Shown: piece by piece, positions 19,633 through 25,766 of the stretch
How positions within the stretch are numbered: position 1 is the stretch's first letter
Layout of the letters: each line of letters starts with the position of its first letter
The notes under the pieces: generated by a model
Told to the model about the DNA's origin: nothing
The model's database searches: none
What the model saw: the letters and a program-made list of their open reading frames with translations, nothing else
Source of the DNA: a virus
Virus genome (UHGV): UHGV-0162601
Length of the DNA: 37,895 nt
Direction: 5' to 3' (one strand)
Program-made: the position numbers and the translations under genes

Positions 19633-19690
19633 CAAACAATGGGCTTCTTTATAGTTCCTATTGTATCAGAGAAAGAGAGCTGATTCAATT

Positions 19691-20830
19691 ATGGCAAGAT
19701 TAGTCAAACGTGGAAATAGTTGGCAATACGAAATTTCATACAAAAAAGATGACGGAAAATACACGAAGATAAGAAAATCAGGATTCAAGACAAAAGGCGA
19801 AGCAAAAGATGCCGCCAACGAATTAGAATATAACCTAAACAAAGGCCTTAAAGGGGATCGCAAAAATCTATTATTATCAGACTACTTTGAGGATTGGATG
19901 CAACTTTATAAAGAAGGAACAGTATCTCCTATCACTTATAGAAAATACGAAGATACGTTAATGAACATAAAGAAATATATGCCAGCGGTATTGATTTCTG
20001 ATTTAGATAGAGTTGGATATCAACGCTTTTTAAATAAGTATGCTAAAGACCATGTAAAATCTACCGTTATTAAGTTTAATAACCATATTAGAGCGTCGTT
20101 GAAAGATGCCGTAGAAGAAGGATTAATTCCGTTTGATCCAACTAGAAAAGCAGTAATCAAAGGAAAAGATTCATTGAAGCCAAAAGAAGATAAATATTTA
20201 GATTATGATCAATTTAAATCTTTAATGAAACTCGTAGAAGAAAACCTTTCTGCGCAGTACTCTTCTCCTATGCTCGTGTTAGTTGCTGGTGCCACTGGAA
20301 TGCGATTTGCTGAACTTCTAGGATTAACATGGGAAGATATCGATTTCGAAGATCAAATCATCACTATTAATAAAACATGGAATTATAAATTAAATGAATG
20401 GGGAAAAACAAAAAACGAAACTTCAAATAGGAAAATTTCCATTGATAAACATACGATTGATCTCTTAAAAAAGTTTAAAATCAATCAAAAAGAATTATTC
20501 GAGAATTTTGAAATCAAAAACCCTCATAATTTTGTTTTTTTCAACTTAAAAAATGGATTAGTTTCATCAAACGCCGTCAGCAAATATTTGCGCAAAAAAT
20601 TAAAAGAATTAGGGATTGAAAAGCAATTTACTTTGCATGGACTAAGGCATACACATGCATCTATTTTACTTTATCAAGGAGTAAATATACTTAGCGTATC
20701 GAAACGTTTAGGACATAGCAGTTTAGAAACTACAATGTCTACTTATCTTCATATTGTTCGAGAGCTTGAAGATCAGGATAAAGAAAAAATCAATGCTGTG
20801 TTCGATAGTTTATATAAAAATGATAACTAG
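19691..20830 (+). CDS. int: tyrosine integrase (phage integrase family)
   Basis: N-terminal SAM-like domain and C-terminal catalytic R...HGLRHTHASILLYQG...Y motifs. Confidence 0.9.
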   Translation: MARLVKRGNSWQYEISYKKDDGKYTKIRKSGFKTKGEAKDAANELEYNLNKGLKGDRKNLLLSDYFEDWMQLYKEGTVSPITYRKYEDTLMNIKKYMPAVLISDLDRVGYQRFLNKYAKDHVKSTVIKFNNHIRASLKDAVEEGLIPFDPTRKAVIKGKDSLKPKEDKYLDYDQFKSLMKLVEENLSAQYSSPMLVLVAGATGMRFAELLGLTWEDIDFEDQIITINKTWNYKLNEWGKTKNETSNRKISIDKHTIDLLKKFKINQKELFENFEIKNPHNFVFFNLKNGLVSSNAVSKYLRKKLKELGIEKQFTLHGLRHTHASILLYQGVNILSVSKRLGHSSLETTMSTYLHIVRELEDQDKEKINAVFDSLYKNDN

Positions 20831-21024: not shown

Positions 21025-21110
21025 GTACTTTTTCATCTATTTGTTTGTATAATAAATTCCACCTTTACAAAAAGAACATTAGTTCGTATACTCTTCTCGA
21101 GGTGATCTTT

Positions 21111-21341
21111 ATGATGGAAGAATTTATTAGAAAAAATATTAGTGATGAATATGCAGATTTTTATGAGCAAAGCAACGAAAAAGACAAATTCCAGATGGAT
21201 GTTTCAATTTTAGCTATATTAGCTTTTTCCGAAAATAACCAACCTGTAACTGCAAAAAAAGAAACAGTATTCTCTGAAGGCAAAATAAAAACTCGATATA
21301 TATTAGAGGTAGAAACTAAGTTTAAAAATAGATCGGAGTAA
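21111..21341 (+). CDS. hypothetical small acidic protein (start MMEEFIRKN after GAGGTGA)
   Basis: ORF with RBS. TAATG overlap with the next gene. Confidence 0.45.
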   Translation: MMEEFIRKNISDEYADFYEQSNEKDKFQMDVSILAILAFSENNQPVTAKKETVFSEGKIKTRYILEVETKFKNRSE

Positions 21342-21646
21342 TGGTTATGCTTTTTAATGAGACGCAATTATGGTTTAAATTTGATCCTTCGAATAGATTT
21401 GTCAAAGATTTTTATAAGGTGTGGGATTCAGAAGTTTTCTTTTTAGCAATCGAAGATAGCTTATTAATCAATCTCTACTATTCTAATAAGAACTACTTTA
21501 AAATCCCTGCTGCGAAAACCAGAATGAAGAAAGATGTGTATTTTTTGTTTGATATCGTGACTGACGTGCCGGATACACGGAGCGATCATCGGCGTTATGA
21601 CTATATAAAGTATACTTTCGTTGATCCGGAAAGGTATAAAGATTAA
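21341..21646 (+). CDS. hypothetical protein, translationally coupled to 21111..21341
   Basis: ATG overlaps the upstream TAA. A hairpin follows. Confidence 0.5.
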   Translation: MVMLFNETQLWFKFDPSNRFVKDFYKVWDSEVFFLAIEDSLLINLYYSNKNYFKIPAAKTRMKKDVYFLFDIVTDVPDTRSDHRRYDYIKYTFVDPERYKD

Positions 21647-21650
21647 AGTA

Positions 21651-21670
21651 GGCTACCTAAAAAGGTAGCC
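21651..21670 (+). terminator. hairpin ggctacc-taaaaa-ggtagcc (weak T-run)
   Basis: 7-bp stem after the stop of 21341..21646. Confidence 0.35.
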
Positions 21671-21897
21671 CGGAACGGATTTTATCACCATACTTATGAA
21701 AGGAGATATTTTTTAAGTTAGTATTAAGATTGTGTAATATGATGACGTTATCATTTTAACATAATTAAATTTATTTTTTTATTTTTTTTATACTTATAAA
21801 TTAAAATAAAGAAATAAAGTGCATATCAAATATGTTTGAAAAATAATTTCAATTATAGATTAACTTCCCTATATAACATGTCAAAAAACATAAGATA

Positions 21898-22161
21898 TTA
21901 ACCTATTGCAAAAAATAATAATATAAAATATCCTACAGGGATAATATTTAACAACAATCCACATACTGAGATAACTTTTTCAATAAGACTACTATTTTTA
22001 CTTAATGACCAAATAGAAAGTATAAATCCTATTACTCCCATTAATAAAACAGGAATGAGACTAGAAAATAGCATACCAAACCAGGTTGTAAAAATTTCTA
22101 TACTTACTAATATTCCTATTAATAAACTGAGAATATTGATAAATTTAAATCTTTTATCCAT
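21898..22161 (-). CDS. small 3-TM membrane protein
   Basis: 87 aa, very hydrophobic, RBS AAGGAGG. Confidence 0.55.
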   Translation of the reverse strand: MDKRFKFINILSLLIGILVSIEIFTTWFGMLFSSLIPVLLMGVIGFILSIWSLSKNSSLIEKVISVCGLLLNIIPVGYFILLFFAIG

Positions 22162-22199
22162 AAAAGTTCCTCCTTAATGGTAACTAAATTTTTATGTGC

Positions 22200-22290
22200 C
22201 CTGTAGAATTAAAACCTCCAATCAGATAGTTATAAGCCATCTGATCTGACCAGCTGAGCTAAAGGTACGGAAAGCCATCACAACTACTGC
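22200..22290 (-). other. tRNA-like fragment: D-arm consensus TAGCTCAGCTGGT plus an anticodon-arm-like hairpin (gatgg-cttataa-ctatc); no T-arm
   Basis: Minus-strand ttagctcagctggtcaga. Incomplete cloverleaf. Confidence 0.2.
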
Positions 22291-22351
22291 AAACAAAAAG
22301 AATGGACATAGACTAGATAATAATGGGTTTCATTCTTCATGTTGTGATGGC
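22274..22351. repeat. 11-bp perfect inverted repeat gccatcacaac ... gttgtgatggc (56-nt spacer with an inner agaatg/cattct pair)
   Basis: Seen directly in sequence. Leader region of the membrane-protein gene. Confidence 0.45.
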
Positions 22352-22441
22352 ATATTTATTATTACACATTTAATAGCAAAAAACTAGATTGTACTTATTC
22401 TTTGTAAAAGATATTATTTTATGCTATTATTTCCAAGTCAT

Positions 22442-22516
22442 AAAAAGAAAAAAGCTTCAGATACTTATCTTTTTGGGGAAAGACTCTAGGGTGAGGGAGT
22501 ATCTGAAGCTTTTTTC
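22442..22516. terminator. bidirectional terminator: A-run, 14-bp stem aagcttcagatact / agtatctgaagctt, T-run
   Basis: Perfect 14-bp stem with a 32-nt loop, flanked by A6+ and T6. Confidence 0.55.
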
Positions 22517-22581
22517 TATGTTCATTATCTCACATAGTTATTTTTTAGTCTATTATTTGATTAGATTTTTCAGAAAAAATG

Positions 22582-22618
22582 AAAAAACCTCAGCCAAGGA
22601 TGATTGGTTGAGGTTTTT
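22582..22618. terminator. bidirectional terminator: A6, 10-bp stem cctcagccaa / ttggttgagg (1 G-U), loop ggatga, T5
   Basis: Directly downstream of the three-gene operon. Confidence 0.65.
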
Positions 22619-22657
22619 GTCTTGCAAATTTAAATAGATAACTCTATTACTTGTATT

Positions 22658-23056
22658 TTATTTTTGTTGACTATATAGCTGATATAAATCAATAACTGTA
22701 GGCATAACTCCTACTTCGCTATATAAATTAGAAATCAAATTAGAAGCTTTATTCAGGATAGGTTTAGCTAGCTCTCCCATAGATTCTTCTACTAATTTTT
22801 TATATGGCTGTTCATTTGTAGAAACACGAATAACTGAAAAGAGTAAAATATCTACCGGTGCTCCTTCCATCCCCCCTACAATGTGAGCTCGTAAAGAAAC
22901 AAGTTTTTTTTCTAGATACTCTGCTTCGTCTTCTTTATATCCAAGTTCAATATTAAACTCTAAATCTCCATAACTAAAATTATCAGTTAATTCAAAATGA
23001 ATTTTATTCAAACTAATATTTTCAAGTGCAAAAGTAACACTATTTCCTTTATCCAT
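22658..23056 (-). CDS. SecB-like chaperone (third gene of a TAC-type module)
   Basis: By-eye alignment to E. coli SecB: SVTFALENISLNKIHFE vs EMTFQIQRIYTKDISFE, and LAKPILNKASNLISNLYSEVGVMPTVIDLYQLY vs [36 protein letters not shown]. Confidence 0.6.
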   Translation of the reverse strand: MDKGNSVTFALENISLNKIHFELTDNFSYGDLEFNIELGYKEDEAEYLEKKLVSLRAHIVGGMEGAPVDILLFSVIRVSTNEQPYKKLVEESMGELAKPILNKASNLISNLYSEVGVMPTVIDLYQLYSQQK

Positions 23057-23501
23057 GTACATATACCTCTTTTTCTACAATATAGCGGCTCGTATCTTGG
23101 TAATTAACACTAGCATAGACCATATTTGACGATACTTCTTTTCTCTTTCTACTTTTAAATACTGAGTAACTTTTATTCCGAATATAAGGTTTATTTTCAA
23201 TACGGTCATATTTAATAGGGCCGCCAGCAACCTTAATAGTGAAATTCATTGAATCTTTATAGGACAAATTTTCAACTTGTTTCAAAAGTTTATTGTACTC
23301 TGCAACAGGAATATGCATATCTCCGAACTCAAATTCAAGATATTTTTTTTCACTTATTCCTAACATTTTTGAGAATTCTGTCACGTTTTTTTGTTTTTTT
23401 AATCTTATTTTAAGTAATTGTTTGGACAGGTTTCTTTGTTCAGAATTTAATTTTTTATATAAATCAGGATGTTTTTTTAATAAATCATTAATAGATTTCA
23501 T
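23049..23501 (-). CDS. HigA-like HTH_XRE antitoxin with about 75-aa C-terminal extension (chaperone-addiction-like)
   Basis: HTH LLKIRLKKQKNVTEFSKMLGISEKKYLEFEFGD. Aromatic/basic C-terminal tail ...YIVEKEVYVHG. RBS GGGGAGG. Overlaps both neighbours. Confidence 0.55.
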   Translation of the reverse strand: MKSINDLLKKHPDLYKKLNSEQRNLSKQLLKIRLKKQKNVTEFSKMLGISEKKYLEFEFGDMHIPVAEYNKLLKQVENLSYKDSMNFTIKVAGGPIKYDRIENKPYIRNKSYSVFKSRKRKEVSSNMVYASVNYQDTSRYIVEKEVYVHG

Positions 23502-23994
23502 TCAACTTTTCCTCCCCTATCCAGTAATTCTCTTCCCCATTGCATACTTTCTTACATATATCATCACTTTCTGTAGCAGCTTGACGGGTTTTATCCGAAT
23601 TGATTGTTCCATTTTTCGTAAAACCGAATGTTAATGCAGTAGTCGCAGTAGCATCTTCTATAGAATTGTATACGAAAAAAACAATTCTATAATGCTCATA
23701 TGTATCATCTAGTCTTATTTCATAACTAAATTTATGATAAAAAAGTTCTTTTACTATTTCCGATCTTTGGAGTATTCCCATCCGATTTCTTAAGCTTAGC
23801 TCAATAGGTGTTTTTATTGGAGAATCATTTTCACCAATTAATTTATTTTTTTTAACAGAGTAAATTTCAAGATATTTTAATACTTGTAAAAAATTATCTG
23901 TAAGATGTTCATCTTCAAAGATAGTTTCTTCGAGATATTTAATCGCCAATTCTAAATTGCTATCATTTTGTTGAACCAACCACTTAATGTCCAT
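23488..23994 (-). CDS. HigB/Gp49-like (RelE/ParE superfamily) toxin with N-terminal extension
   Basis: C-terminal core YEIRLDDTYEHYRIVFFVYNS...TALTFGFTKNGTINSDKTRQAA aligns by eye with M. tuberculosis HigB1 LELRWHEANNHFRVLFFRWGQHPVALTAFYKNQQKTPKTKIETA. Confidence 0.55.
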   Translation of the reverse strand: MDIKWLVQQNDSNLELAIKYLEETIFEDEHLTDNFLQVLKYLEIYSVKKNKLIGENDSPIKTPIELSLRNRMGILQRSEIVKELFYHKFSYEIRLDDTYEHYRIVFFVYNSIEDATATTALTFGFTKNGTINSDKTRQAATESDDICKKVCNGEENYWIGEEKLNEIY

Positions 23995-24257
23995 CTCACT
24001 AAACCACCTGTTTCAATATTAGTAAATATTACTATATGTATAAGCATATTATATATATTTGTATCTTATTTTAAGTTTAACTATAGTACATCCTGCTTGT
24101 CAATAAAAATTAGCTTATTTTATAAGCAATTTAGTTAACATAATGTAATAAGGTAGAAATGTTTAAATACTGAAAATAAATTACAATTGTATTACCAAAC
24201 TAGTTTACGCTTTTGATTACAAATTAGCTAATAATATGCGCTAATTTATATATGTAC

Positions 24258-24282
24258 CGCCCCTCATCGAGGGGCTTTTTTT
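24258..24282. terminator. hairpin gcccctc-atc-gaggggc + T7 (A/T-rich on both sides) right after the endolysin stop
   Basis: 7-bp GC stem. ttttttt on plus; the endolysin stop codon is embedded in the run. Confidence 0.55.
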
Positions 24283-25300
24283 ATCGTTGCGGAATATTTA
24301 AATACCAGCGTTTATCATGAAAATCTTGTGCTCCGCCTTTAGTGTTCCCTTCTGGATCATTCGTTGCACGCATCATTACATAGACTTTCTTATTAGAAAA
24401 ATTACGCATATTGAAAGATACATGATAACCAACGTTTCCAGAAGTATTATAAGCTTGATTTACATCTGGTCTATAAATTCCATCAGCTCTTACTCGAGCT
24501 AATTCTTTCCCAGTATTGTAGTCCATAATGAAAATATACTCGTATTTATAGTTAGCGATGTGCCATCCAGCGACGTGTAAGTTCGCATTTTCGATTTCTC
24601 CAAACTGATCAATGTGAGAATGGTTCGTTCCATCTGATAAAGTTGGATTTGCTGCACCTGCTCGGGTTGGATCAATGACAGGCTTGTTCTCAGAAGTCGT
24701 TGGGTTTTCGTCTGTAAATCCATGAGCTAAATCGTAAGCCAGTTTTTCCTTACTTACACCCATTTCTGATAAGTATCCATACGGATCAGTGTGATCGCCC
24801 CAAATGTTTTGAGTTACCCATAAATGTGATTTGATTCCTGGTTGATTATACGGTGTGTCTAATGTAAGTGGAATACCGTATTTCTTTGCTGAATCTCTAG
24901 CCAATTCAACGTATGCTTTATAGTTTTTTTCAAAAGTTGCTTTATCATGTGTGTGTTGTAACTCAATCTGCACAGGACTATTGGCATTAGCATATGAACC
25001 AGCACCGTACTGTACATAACCAGGTTGTCCGACTTGGTAAACAATTCCACCGTCTCCCACAATGTAAGCAGTATAAGCACTAGTCCATGAACGTTGCATA
25101 TACTGCGCTTCATTGCGTCCTGTTGCTGTTTCGTTAGCTGTTTCATGCAGTAAAATATACTGATTATTCGCTACTTGAGAGCTACCTTCATTTACACCTA
25201 AATTAAATTCATTGTTAATCGTATAGGCAAACCCATTAATTGGCAATAAAAAAAGAGCCGTTAATAGGCTCATCGCAGTAATAGTAATTTTCTTTCTCAT
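24281..25300 (-). CDS. endolysin: N-acetylmuramoyl-L-alanine amidase (Amidase_2/PGRP-like) with N-terminal Sec signal peptide and a C-terminal wall-binding domain
   Basis: MRKKITITAMSLLTALFLLPINGFAY signal-like N-terminus. Amidase_2-like YILLHETANE... Last gene of the lysis cassette. Confidence 0.75.
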   Translation of the reverse strand: MRKKITITAMSLLTALFLLPINGFAYTINNEFNLGVNEGSSQVANNQYILLHETANETATGRNEAQYMQRSWTSAYTAYIVGDGGIVYQVGQPGYVQYGAGSYANANSPVQIELQHTHDKATFEKNYKAYVELARDSAKKYGIPLTLDTPYNQPGIKSHLWVTQNIWGDHTDPYGYLSEMGVSKEKLAYDLAHGFTDENPTTSENKPVIDPTRAGAANPTLSDGTNHSHIDQFGEIENANLHVAGWHIANYKYEYIFIMDYNTGKELARVRADGIYRPDVNQAYNTSGNVGYHVSFNMRNFSNKKVYVMMRATNDPEGNTKGGAQDFHDKRWYLNIPQR

Positions 25301-25310
25301 TTGTTTCCTC

Positions 25311-25508
25311 CTATTTTTTCAAATTATATGCCGACACACCAGTGATAACGCCTAAAAATGTTGCTACTGCATTGATAGTGAGTACTGTCATATCTGTTCC
25401 ATTCCATCCATACGCTTTTCCTAACGTGGCTACTAAAACAGATGCAGCTGGTAAAACTGTTAAAACCGTCCATTTAATGACTTGATAATACTTATCGGGT
25501 AAAATCAT
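25311..25508 (-). CDS. holin (XhlB/SPP1-type, 2 TM)
   Basis: 65 aa with two hydrophobic helices and a basic C-terminus, between XhlA and the amidase. Confidence 0.7.
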   Translation of the reverse strand: MILPDKYYQVIKWTVLTVLPAASVLVATLGKAYGWNGTDMTVLTINAVATFLGVITGVSAYNLKK

Positions 25509-25523
25509 TTCTTCTCACCTCCT

Positions 25524-25766
25524 TTACAATTTAGTCAAGAAATAGCCAATAATCGTAATGCCTAAACCAATCATGTAACCCCACGACCATTTATTATTGG
25601 CTTTCATTTCTTTGATATCTTCTGCATTATTAAGCGCAATAGAATATGCCTGATCCGCTCTATCTTTTGCACTTTCCGCTTTTTCGCGTAATGATTCGTA
25701 ATTATCCAGTTTCGTTTCAATACGCACTAAGCGTTCTACCACGTCTTGTATTGCTTCGTCTTTCAA
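25524..25766 (-). CDS. xhlA: XhlA-family protein (coiled-coil + C-terminal TM)
   Basis: 80 aa. Coiled-coil N-terminus and WSWGYMIGLGITIIGYFL TM helix. First gene of the lysis cassette. Confidence 0.7.
   Translation of the reverse strand: MKDEAIQDVVERLVRIETKLDNYESLREKAESAKDRADQAYSIALNNAEDIKEMKANNKWSWGYMIGLGITIIGYFLTKL

Follow-up and report, generated by a model that had tools for sequence, protein, structure and literature searches.

A probable toxin-antitoxin-chaperone-like operon, highly divergent, carried behind the endolysin gene of enterococcal prophages

In the HigBAC system of Escherichia coli NT1F31 (Mets et al., bioRxiv 10.1101/2024.02.24.581848), a toxin, an antitoxin and a chaperone are encoded together on a prophage, and the chaperone acts as a phage sensor. 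Lambda's major tail protein competes with the tail of the antitoxin for this chaperone, upon which the antitoxin is degraded and the toxin aborts the infection (bioRxiv 10.1101/2024.02.24.581848). Here we describe a three-gene cassette on the minus strand of the virus genome UHGV-0162601, the whole of which (37,895 bp) was analysed and is called the window below. The cassette is probably a tripartite toxin-antitoxin-chaperone (TAC)-like operon of a very divergent kind, carried as prophage cargo. The same interpretation had been put forward in a sequence-only reading of this DNA; as a whole it is partly supported, and nothing that was found contradicts it. That reading also regarded TAC systems as best described in Mycobacterium tuberculosis, a view that has become dated now that HigBAC and CmdTAC, prophage-encoded defence systems of E. 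coli, have been described (bioRxiv 10.1101/2024.02.24.581848).

Like HigBAC, the cassette is prophage cargo in a variable locus and has the gene order toxin, helix-turn-helix (HTH) antitoxin, chaperone, with a small and acidic third protein and, on the putative antitoxin, a long C-terminal extension that is disordered and has aromatic residues at intervals. It differs from HigBAC in that the third protein shows no detectable sequence similarity to the SecB-type chaperone class of that system, that the putative toxin is of the Gp49 type, enlarged and acidic, that the host is a Gram-positive coccus, and that the cassette is found at the lysis-attachment junction, whereas HigBAC is located downstream of cI. 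The TAC system of M. tuberculosis (Rv1955 HigB1, Rv1956 HigA1 and the SecB-like Rv1957; PMC5105189, PMC6377645, PMC3581621) shares with the cassette its gene order, a Gp49-family toxin (PF05973 includes HigB1; PMC11980606), an XRE-type HTH antitoxin with a C-terminal addiction tail, and overlapping antitoxin and chaperone genes, but it is chromosomal and stress-responsive whereas the cassette is phage cargo. The chaperone-less gp49/gp48 pair of phage N15 also has its toxin gene first, and gene 1 of the cassette aligns to the core strands of gp49 and gene 2 to the HTH of gp48. Unlike the cassette, the N15 locus has no third gene, its gp49 is basic and 103 aa long, and its gp48 is 95 aa long and has no tail.

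Gene structure and distribution of the cassette

The cassette consists of three minus-strand open reading frames (ORFs), present exactly where the sequence-only reading had placed them:

Gene 1 ORF, 23488-23994, minus strand: 168 aa, putative toxin
Gene 2 ORF, 23049-23501, minus strand: 150 aa, putative antitoxin
Gene 3 longest ORF, 22658-23062, minus strand: 134 aa
Gene 3 from its probable start at 23056, 22658-23056, minus strand: 132-aa acidic protein, putative SecB-like chaperone

Genes 1 and 2 overlap by 14 nt. A second 14-nt overlap had been described between genes 2 and 3, which holds only with the longest ORF of gene 3. All homologues of gene 3 begin at its third codon (MDK...), and a GAGG box is located 9 nt ahead of the third-codon ATG; the true start is therefore probably at 23056, and the overlap with gene 2 is probably 8 nt (ATGGATAA). 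An 8-nt overlap of the antitoxin gene and the third gene occurs in seven of the nine cassettes described below, including that of the window, and agrees with the antitoxin-chaperone coupling reported for TAC and antitoxin-chaperone (AC) loci (PMC3581621). The observation as first described, taken with all its parts, is partly confirmed.

The three cassette proteins are 98-99% identical to Enterococcus faecium proteins. The 90%-identity cluster of gene 3 includes a sequence seen on at least 996 (about a thousand) contigs of E. faecium, and identical copies are found on IMG/VR contigs of 38-41 kb. Beyond these close copies all three families are tiny: 5.8 billion proteins contained 3-5 clusters of each, and in 1.84 billion representatives gene 3 had 12 relatives. 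Scans of 185,579 species-representative genomes gave none, and scans of viral and metagenome sequences contributed only two more. From the contigs of relatives, nine distinct cassettes were obtained, the window's own included, in E. faecium, E. thailandicus, E. hirae phage EH-TP1, E. casseliflavus, several metagenomic prophages and Liquorilactobacillus ghanensis. In all nine the three genes are co-oriented and tightly coupled in the order toxin, antitoxin, third gene, with products of 155-192 aa, 150-203 aa and 133-157 aa, respectively.

In every enterococcal and metagenomic case, no more than a few hundred bases separate the prophage endolysin gene from the cassette that follows it, and in known genomes host genes are reached 0.5-1.5 kb downstream of the cassette. 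What had been proposed from the window by itself as to the assignment of toxin and antitoxin, the order of the genes and their location at the end of the prophage is upheld across the nine cassettes. The L. ghanensis cassette comes after genes for a major facilitator superfamily (MFS) transporter and a DUF4811 protein, and its visible surroundings contain no phage genes; because of this non-phage context, the cassette is taken to move as a unit. Contig NGLB01000001.1 of E. faecium GCA_002141335.1 carries two copies of one distant cassette (155, 174 and 140 aa; loci L034 and L035), which are separated by about 110 kb and each follow the Glyco_hydro_25 endolysin gene of a different prophage.

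The G+C content is 28-30% in the cassette region compared to 34-40% in the structural genes, and AT-rich DNA of this type contains many spurious ORFs, so chance ORFs with a fortuitous resemblance to known motifs had to be considered. This explanation is exceedingly improbable and is refuted by conservation: orthologues of all three proteins, at 20-74% identity and encoded in the same order, are present in several genera and in metagenomes. The three genes are real and are conserved as a unit. Among the distant cassettes gene 1 is the most conserved: its identity to the window protein is 38-43%, whereas that of gene 2 is 21-30% and that of gene 3 is 27-35%. That genes 2 and 3 evolve faster is in keeping with a sensor and its ligand being under diversifying pressure.

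The putative toxin and antitoxin

In Pfam, gene 1 matched a single family, Gp49 (PF05973), over residues 91-129 (E = 0.15, 12.6 bits). PF05973 was also the top match at the equivalent residues of three other orthologues (E = 0.012, 0.18 and 0.071; 16.1, 12.3 and 13.6 bits), giving four of six distinct orthologues in total. Since the family had been named beforehand, a single-model p of approximately 1e-5 to 5e-7 is apt for these matches. A Gp49 reference alignment of eight toxins was built from phage records, beginning from N15 gp49, and compared to the gene 1 family using hhalign, which gave E = 0.0057 with three orthologues and E = 9.2e-5 (probability 59%, 35 columns) with eight. The alignment pairs YEIRL...RIVFF...LTFGFTK of gene 1 with fELRv...R.ly...llhgF.KK of the references. 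These residues belong to a conserved core of gene 1 at about residues 89-136 (YEIRL...RIVFF...LTFGFTK...DKT), in which the invariant E92, R94, R103 and K127 align with E53, R55, R63 and K82, which are invariant in the references. The resemblance to Gp49/HigB1 that had been noted by eye in the C-terminal part of gene 1 is accordingly more than chance. Gene 1 lies upstream of an HTH antitoxin gene, and this order, together with the tight coupling, is typical of the Gp49 family (PMC11980606).

Several properties of gene 1 speak against such an assignment. The PF05973 gathering threshold of 23.9 bits was reached by none of the four matching orthologues, and a search of PDB sequences with gene 1 gave no match, even as an 8-sequence profile. 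The protein is acidic, which had escaped the sequence-only reading and is unlike the reference Gp49 toxins: its isoelectric point (pI) is 4.8 (4.83), with values of 4.9-6.4 in six other orthologues and 8.2 in one, compared to 9.1-10.0 in the references. It is also 50-90 residues longer than the reference toxins. From these same features it could be argued that the cassette is a regulatory or lysogenic-conversion cassette of the prophage, formed by an HTH regulator and two acidic accessory proteins, with a degenerate and non-toxic Gp49-like protein. We regard this as improbable. The Gp49-invariant E-x-R, R and K are invariant across orthologues only 31-43% identical, which speaks for an active site that has been kept; toxin-first order and close coupling are typical of the Gp49 family; and the cassette is found outside prophages too. 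Gene 1 is best described as a divergent, enlarged and acidic Gp49/HigB-like protein of the RelE/ParE superfamily and a putative toxin.

A PADLOC match of gene 1 to Cas13-ApeA (23722-23965, residues 10-91, E = 0.0015) was seen in only two close orthologues out of eight (best E = 0.00066) and is probably spurious. It spans the N-terminal part of gene 1 that is absent from ordinary Gp49 toxins.

For gene 2 the top Pfam match was HTH_19 (E = 0.024, with E = 0.012 for one distant orthologue), in both cases under the 30.2-bit threshold, and hhalign comparison of the gene 2 family with N15 gp48 gave E = 0.0071 across the HTH. These matches point to a degenerate XRE-type HTH near the N-terminus, at about residues 25-63. 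The first 80 residues are conserved among orthologues, and the remaining 68-118 are variable in both length and sequence. These tails are 9-15% aromatic and mostly basic (pI 7.9-9.7, with 6.9 in the Liquorilactobacillus copy); that of the window (about 70 aa) has 10 aromatic and 14 basic residues per 70. An XRE HTH followed by an aromatic and basic tail, as had been proposed for gene 2, agrees with these results.

The extension has no counterpart in the chaperone-less homologue N15 gp48, which is 95 aa in total, and as judged from its composition it is a candidate chaperone-addiction region (ChAD). ChAD regions show no sequence similarity among themselves (PMC5105189), which the variable tail of gene 2 fits, and they bind the chaperone through spaced aromatic residues (bioRxiv 10.1101/2024.02.24.581848), a description that the tail matches. 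A weak PADLOC match to RmrA was also observed on gene 2 (E = 0.0083); together with Cas13-ApeA, this is all that PADLOC gave for the cassette.

The third gene and its possible relation to SecB

The gene 3 family has no SecB or other consistent match in Pfam, NCBIfam, PHROGs or PADLOC. As a reference, a SecB profile was built from nine species using plasmid records, to which the Pfam-positive SecB protein of Clostridium phage phiCD119 was added later. A hidden Markov model of the nine sequences found none of the third genes of the cassettes. The same profile finds Rv1957, which has the classic SecB helix motif (YPYIRE...LPPLTL), weakly (E = 0.56), and does not find gene 3. Searches of the PDB with all three cassette proteins, as single sequences and as profiles, gave nothing.

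A number of results argue against gene 3 being a SecB protein. None of the 12 family members matched Pfam SecB (PF02556) at E values up to 10. Of the profile searches that the sequence-only reading had proposed, those for PF05973 and for the HTH of gene 2 gave matches below threshold, the latter as HTH_19, and that for SecB gave none. The gene 3 family profile also reached no SecB chain in the PDB. Local hhalign alignment of gene 3 with SecB gave only E = 0.04-0.11, the reversed SecB profile outscored the true one, and adding the phiCD119 sequence was of no help, with scores at chance. As a control, phiCD119 ORF38 (Pfam SecB-positive, 30.8 bits) gave E = 1.6e-7 in the same test; the method therefore sees distant SecB proteins, yet not gene 3. 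Two AlphaFold2 models, made from four-sequence alignments, were both poor (predicted local distance difference test, pLDDT, of 47.7 and 46.4). For the system as a whole, no defence-system model of PADLOC-DB 2.0 matched the components of the cassette.

The local match is limited to the N-terminal strand (gene 3 residues 8-29 with SecB 11-32, E = 0.04-0.06). When a global hhalign alignment was forced, gene 3 and SecB were collinear, with the conserved P121 of gene 3 opposite SecB P124 and IDLYQLY opposite INFDALF. The score of this alignment was 12.1, compared to 2.2 +/- 2.1 for column shuffles (0 of 150 reaching it), 3.7 +/- 2.8 for block shuffles (1 of 100), 4.0 for the reversed profile and 1.8-8.6 for unrelated families. 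It is thus better than about 99% of shuffles, which provides marginal support. Gene 3 had been described as matching SecB at both ends; the N-terminal part of this match was recovered locally and the whole marginally in the collinear global alignment, and no local match was obtained at the C-terminus.

In the low-confidence model of gene 3, four strands come first, then one long helix and lastly one short helix, which is also the order of the elements in SecB. Foldseek searches with the model gave no match below E = 0.1. Among the top 50 matches were 13 SecB chains from E. coli, Haemophilus influenzae and M. tuberculosis; 5MTW, in which Rv1957 is in complex with the ChAD, was one of the entries. 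The same top 50 contained four streptococcal chains of unknown function (2O2A, 2HNG), which we take to be classed with SecB. Also in the list were Bet v 1/START folds, likewise made up of a sheet and a long helix. Of the 12 members of the gene 3 family, 11 have a pI of 4.0-4.7, similar to the SecB references (4.2-6.1).

The third protein of EH-TP1 is 61% identical to gene 3, and in the GenBank record of this phage the three proteins are labelled RelE/ParE toxin, XRE regulator and protein-export protein SecB, the last on the basis of a structure alignment to an AlphaFold SecB model, according to the notes in the record. Two members of the gene 3 family in UniRef are named 'Preprotein translocase subunit SecB'. 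These labels are annotations and not tests, though they are independent of the sequence-only reading.

Alternatively, the cassette could be a plain two-gene Gp49/HigB-HigA pair with an obligatorily linked third protein unrelated to SecB, such as a chaperone with a new fold, an adaptor, a phage sensor or a second regulator. The SecB sequence-profile tests, all negative or marginal, the sharing of the Foldseek list with Bet v 1/START folds and the absence of the family from four profile libraries would all be expected in that case. Against it stand the collinear global alignment that so few shuffles equal, the presence of three independent SecB proteins among the 50 best Foldseek matches, the agreement of gene 3 with SecB in size and in acidic pI, and the independent structure-based annotation of the EH-TP1 orthologue, and we consider it unlikely, though less so than a non-toxic cassette. 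Equally doubtful is a variant in which gene 3 would represent a new, non-SecB family of small acidic chaperones or sensors that holds the disordered tail of the antitoxin, making the cassette a new tripartite type of toxin-antitoxin system; such a type may be specific to prophages of lactic acid bacteria, where its partner would be a Gp49-like effector of unusual acidity. Gene 3 is probably SecB-like, as suggested by signals that are each marginal; neither the sequence tests nor the structure tests identified it as SecB.

Attention was drawn to SecB-like genes of Firmicute phages in 2012 (PMC3581621). The 'solitary' SecB of phiCD119, ORF38 (PMC3581621), resembles gene 3 in that it is small and located in the lysin-integrase interval of a temperate phage of Firmicutes. 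It passes the Pfam SecB threshold (30.8 bits, E = 3.1e-7), which gene 3 does not, has no detectable similarity to the gene 3 family, and has as its upstream partner a different protein of 197 aa. In phiCD119 (locus L023, 26360-27402), ORF38 starts 18 nt after the 197-aa ORF, which has no Pfam match and an acidic, aromatic-rich C-terminus (...FDFNFKFEIEDYDNDDYALAA). ORF38 may belong, as one half, to an antitoxin-chaperone pair that has gone unrecognised. In the same phage, the gene next to the integrase gene encodes a HicB-like antitoxin.

Flanking sequences and possible function

The features that surround the cassette in the window are as follows:

25524-25766: XhlA, upstream of the cassette
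25311-25508: Dp-1-type holin, upstream of the cassette
24281-25300: Amidase_2 endolysin, directly upstream of the cassette
24259-24275, plus strand: GC-rich hairpin found by scanning the gap between the endolysin gene and gene 1, with a U-run on the plus strand only
24108-24132: imperfect palindrome AATTAGCTTAT / ATAAGCAATTT from a repeat search, 82% complementary, just upstream of the -35 box
24074-24103, minus strand: candidate promoter (TTGACA, 18-nt spacer, TAAACT) from a consensus scan, 10 of 12 matches, approximately 80 nt upstream of gene 1
22570-22621: bidirectional intrinsic terminator 3' of gene 3, a hairpin with U-runs on both strands
19661-20830: tyrosine integrase, on the other strand

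The cassette had been assigned to the locus between the endolysin gene and attP. The XhlA, holin and endolysin genes lie directly upstream and the integrase gene beyond gene 3, as would fit such a locus with a putative attP. Promoter-like sites across the region are fewer than in its shuffles, and the TTGACA/TAAACT site is a candidate only. The palindrome next to it may be an operator of the HTH antitoxin.

Two bidirectional terminators had been proposed to flank the cassette, and one of them stands. At 22570-22621 the minus strand has a hairpin of -16.7 kcal/mol followed by U6CAU6, and the plus strand has one of -21.8 kcal/mol followed by U5. The hairpin at 24259-24275 folds with -13.8 kcal/mol on either strand, and on the minus strand its stem is followed by GGUACAU. 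Without a U-run on that strand, read-through from the lysis genes into the cassette is possible. An Rfam match to CyaR/RyeE at 22582-22673 on the minus strand (E = 0.014) reached 29 bits, under the gathering score of 47; it covers the end of gene 3 and the terminator hairpin and is most likely the terminator only.

Further elements were observed between the cassette and the integrase gene. The non-coding stretch at 22300-22570, just past the cassette terminator, is 96.7% identical to two wastewater records named 'Listeria phage LM 4-11-1 / 4-14-1', and a third record named LM 4-14-1 carries an UNVERIFIED_ORG flag. This identity reflects either intergenus exchange or misassigned records; the cassette proteins are enterococcal. 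ARAGORN called a tRNA-Ile with anticodon TAT at 22195-22268 on the minus strand, and Rfam gave no tRNA within 21600-24400 at E values up to 1. By eye, the element has acceptor, D and T stems with one mismatch each and the T-loop TTTTAAT. The element may be a phage tRNA that has decayed, or else a remnant connected with the attachment site.

Two overlapping small genes (98 aa and 101 aa) at 21045-21646 on the plus strand are convergent to the cassette, the second encoding a DUF5960 protein (E = 1.2e-18). A DUF5960 gene with at least one small adjacent ORF recurs near the cassette of other prophages, in loci L006 (8205-8779), L036 (4436-4926), L037 (4425-5182) and L038 (342-590), and the pair may be a second cargo module. 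Between this pair and the tRNA-like element lies an 87-aa ORF (21898-22161, minus strand) that consists almost entirely of hydrophobic segments and has no Pfam match; to judge from its sequence, it is likely a small membrane protein.

If the cassette is a TAC-like operon, as we think probable, gene 1 would be a Gp49/HigB-type toxin and, by family analogy, probably a translation-dependent mRNA endonuclease. The XRE-HTH antitoxin encoded by gene 2 would bind the toxin and probably repress the operon, and its long, aggregation-prone and aromatic-rich tail would make it dependent on gene 3, an acidic and probably SecB-like chaperone whose translation would be coupled to that of the antitoxin gene. 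In a lysogen, the three proteins would keep the toxin silent. A protein of a superinfecting phage that competes for the chaperone, or loss of the prophage, could then act as the trigger, after which the antitoxin would be degraded and the toxin would arrest translation, with abortive infection or addiction as the outcome. By analogy with the described systems, we favour defence of the lysogen against superinfection, with prophage addiction as a compatible second effect.

TAC systems, their carriage by prophages and their role in defence have already been published, and the present cassette is a gain in breadth and not in principle. A full-text literature search found no paper describing this enterococcal cassette. 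It is set apart from the described members by its enlarged acidic toxin, by a third protein that SecB profiles fail to detect and by its fixed position after the endolysin gene. Because none of its proteins reaches threshold in Pfam, NCBIfam, PHROGs or PADLOC, current defence-system finders miss it. If our interpretation is correct, the toxin-antitoxin-chaperone concept would extend to Gram-positive hosts without a SecB export pathway, and the cassette would offer a very divergent chaperone-tail pair for the study of how such sensors recognise phage proteins. If it works like HigBAC of the E. coli prophage, it would be a lysogen-encoded abortive-infection system in E. faecium, a hospital pathogen and a target of phage therapy efforts.

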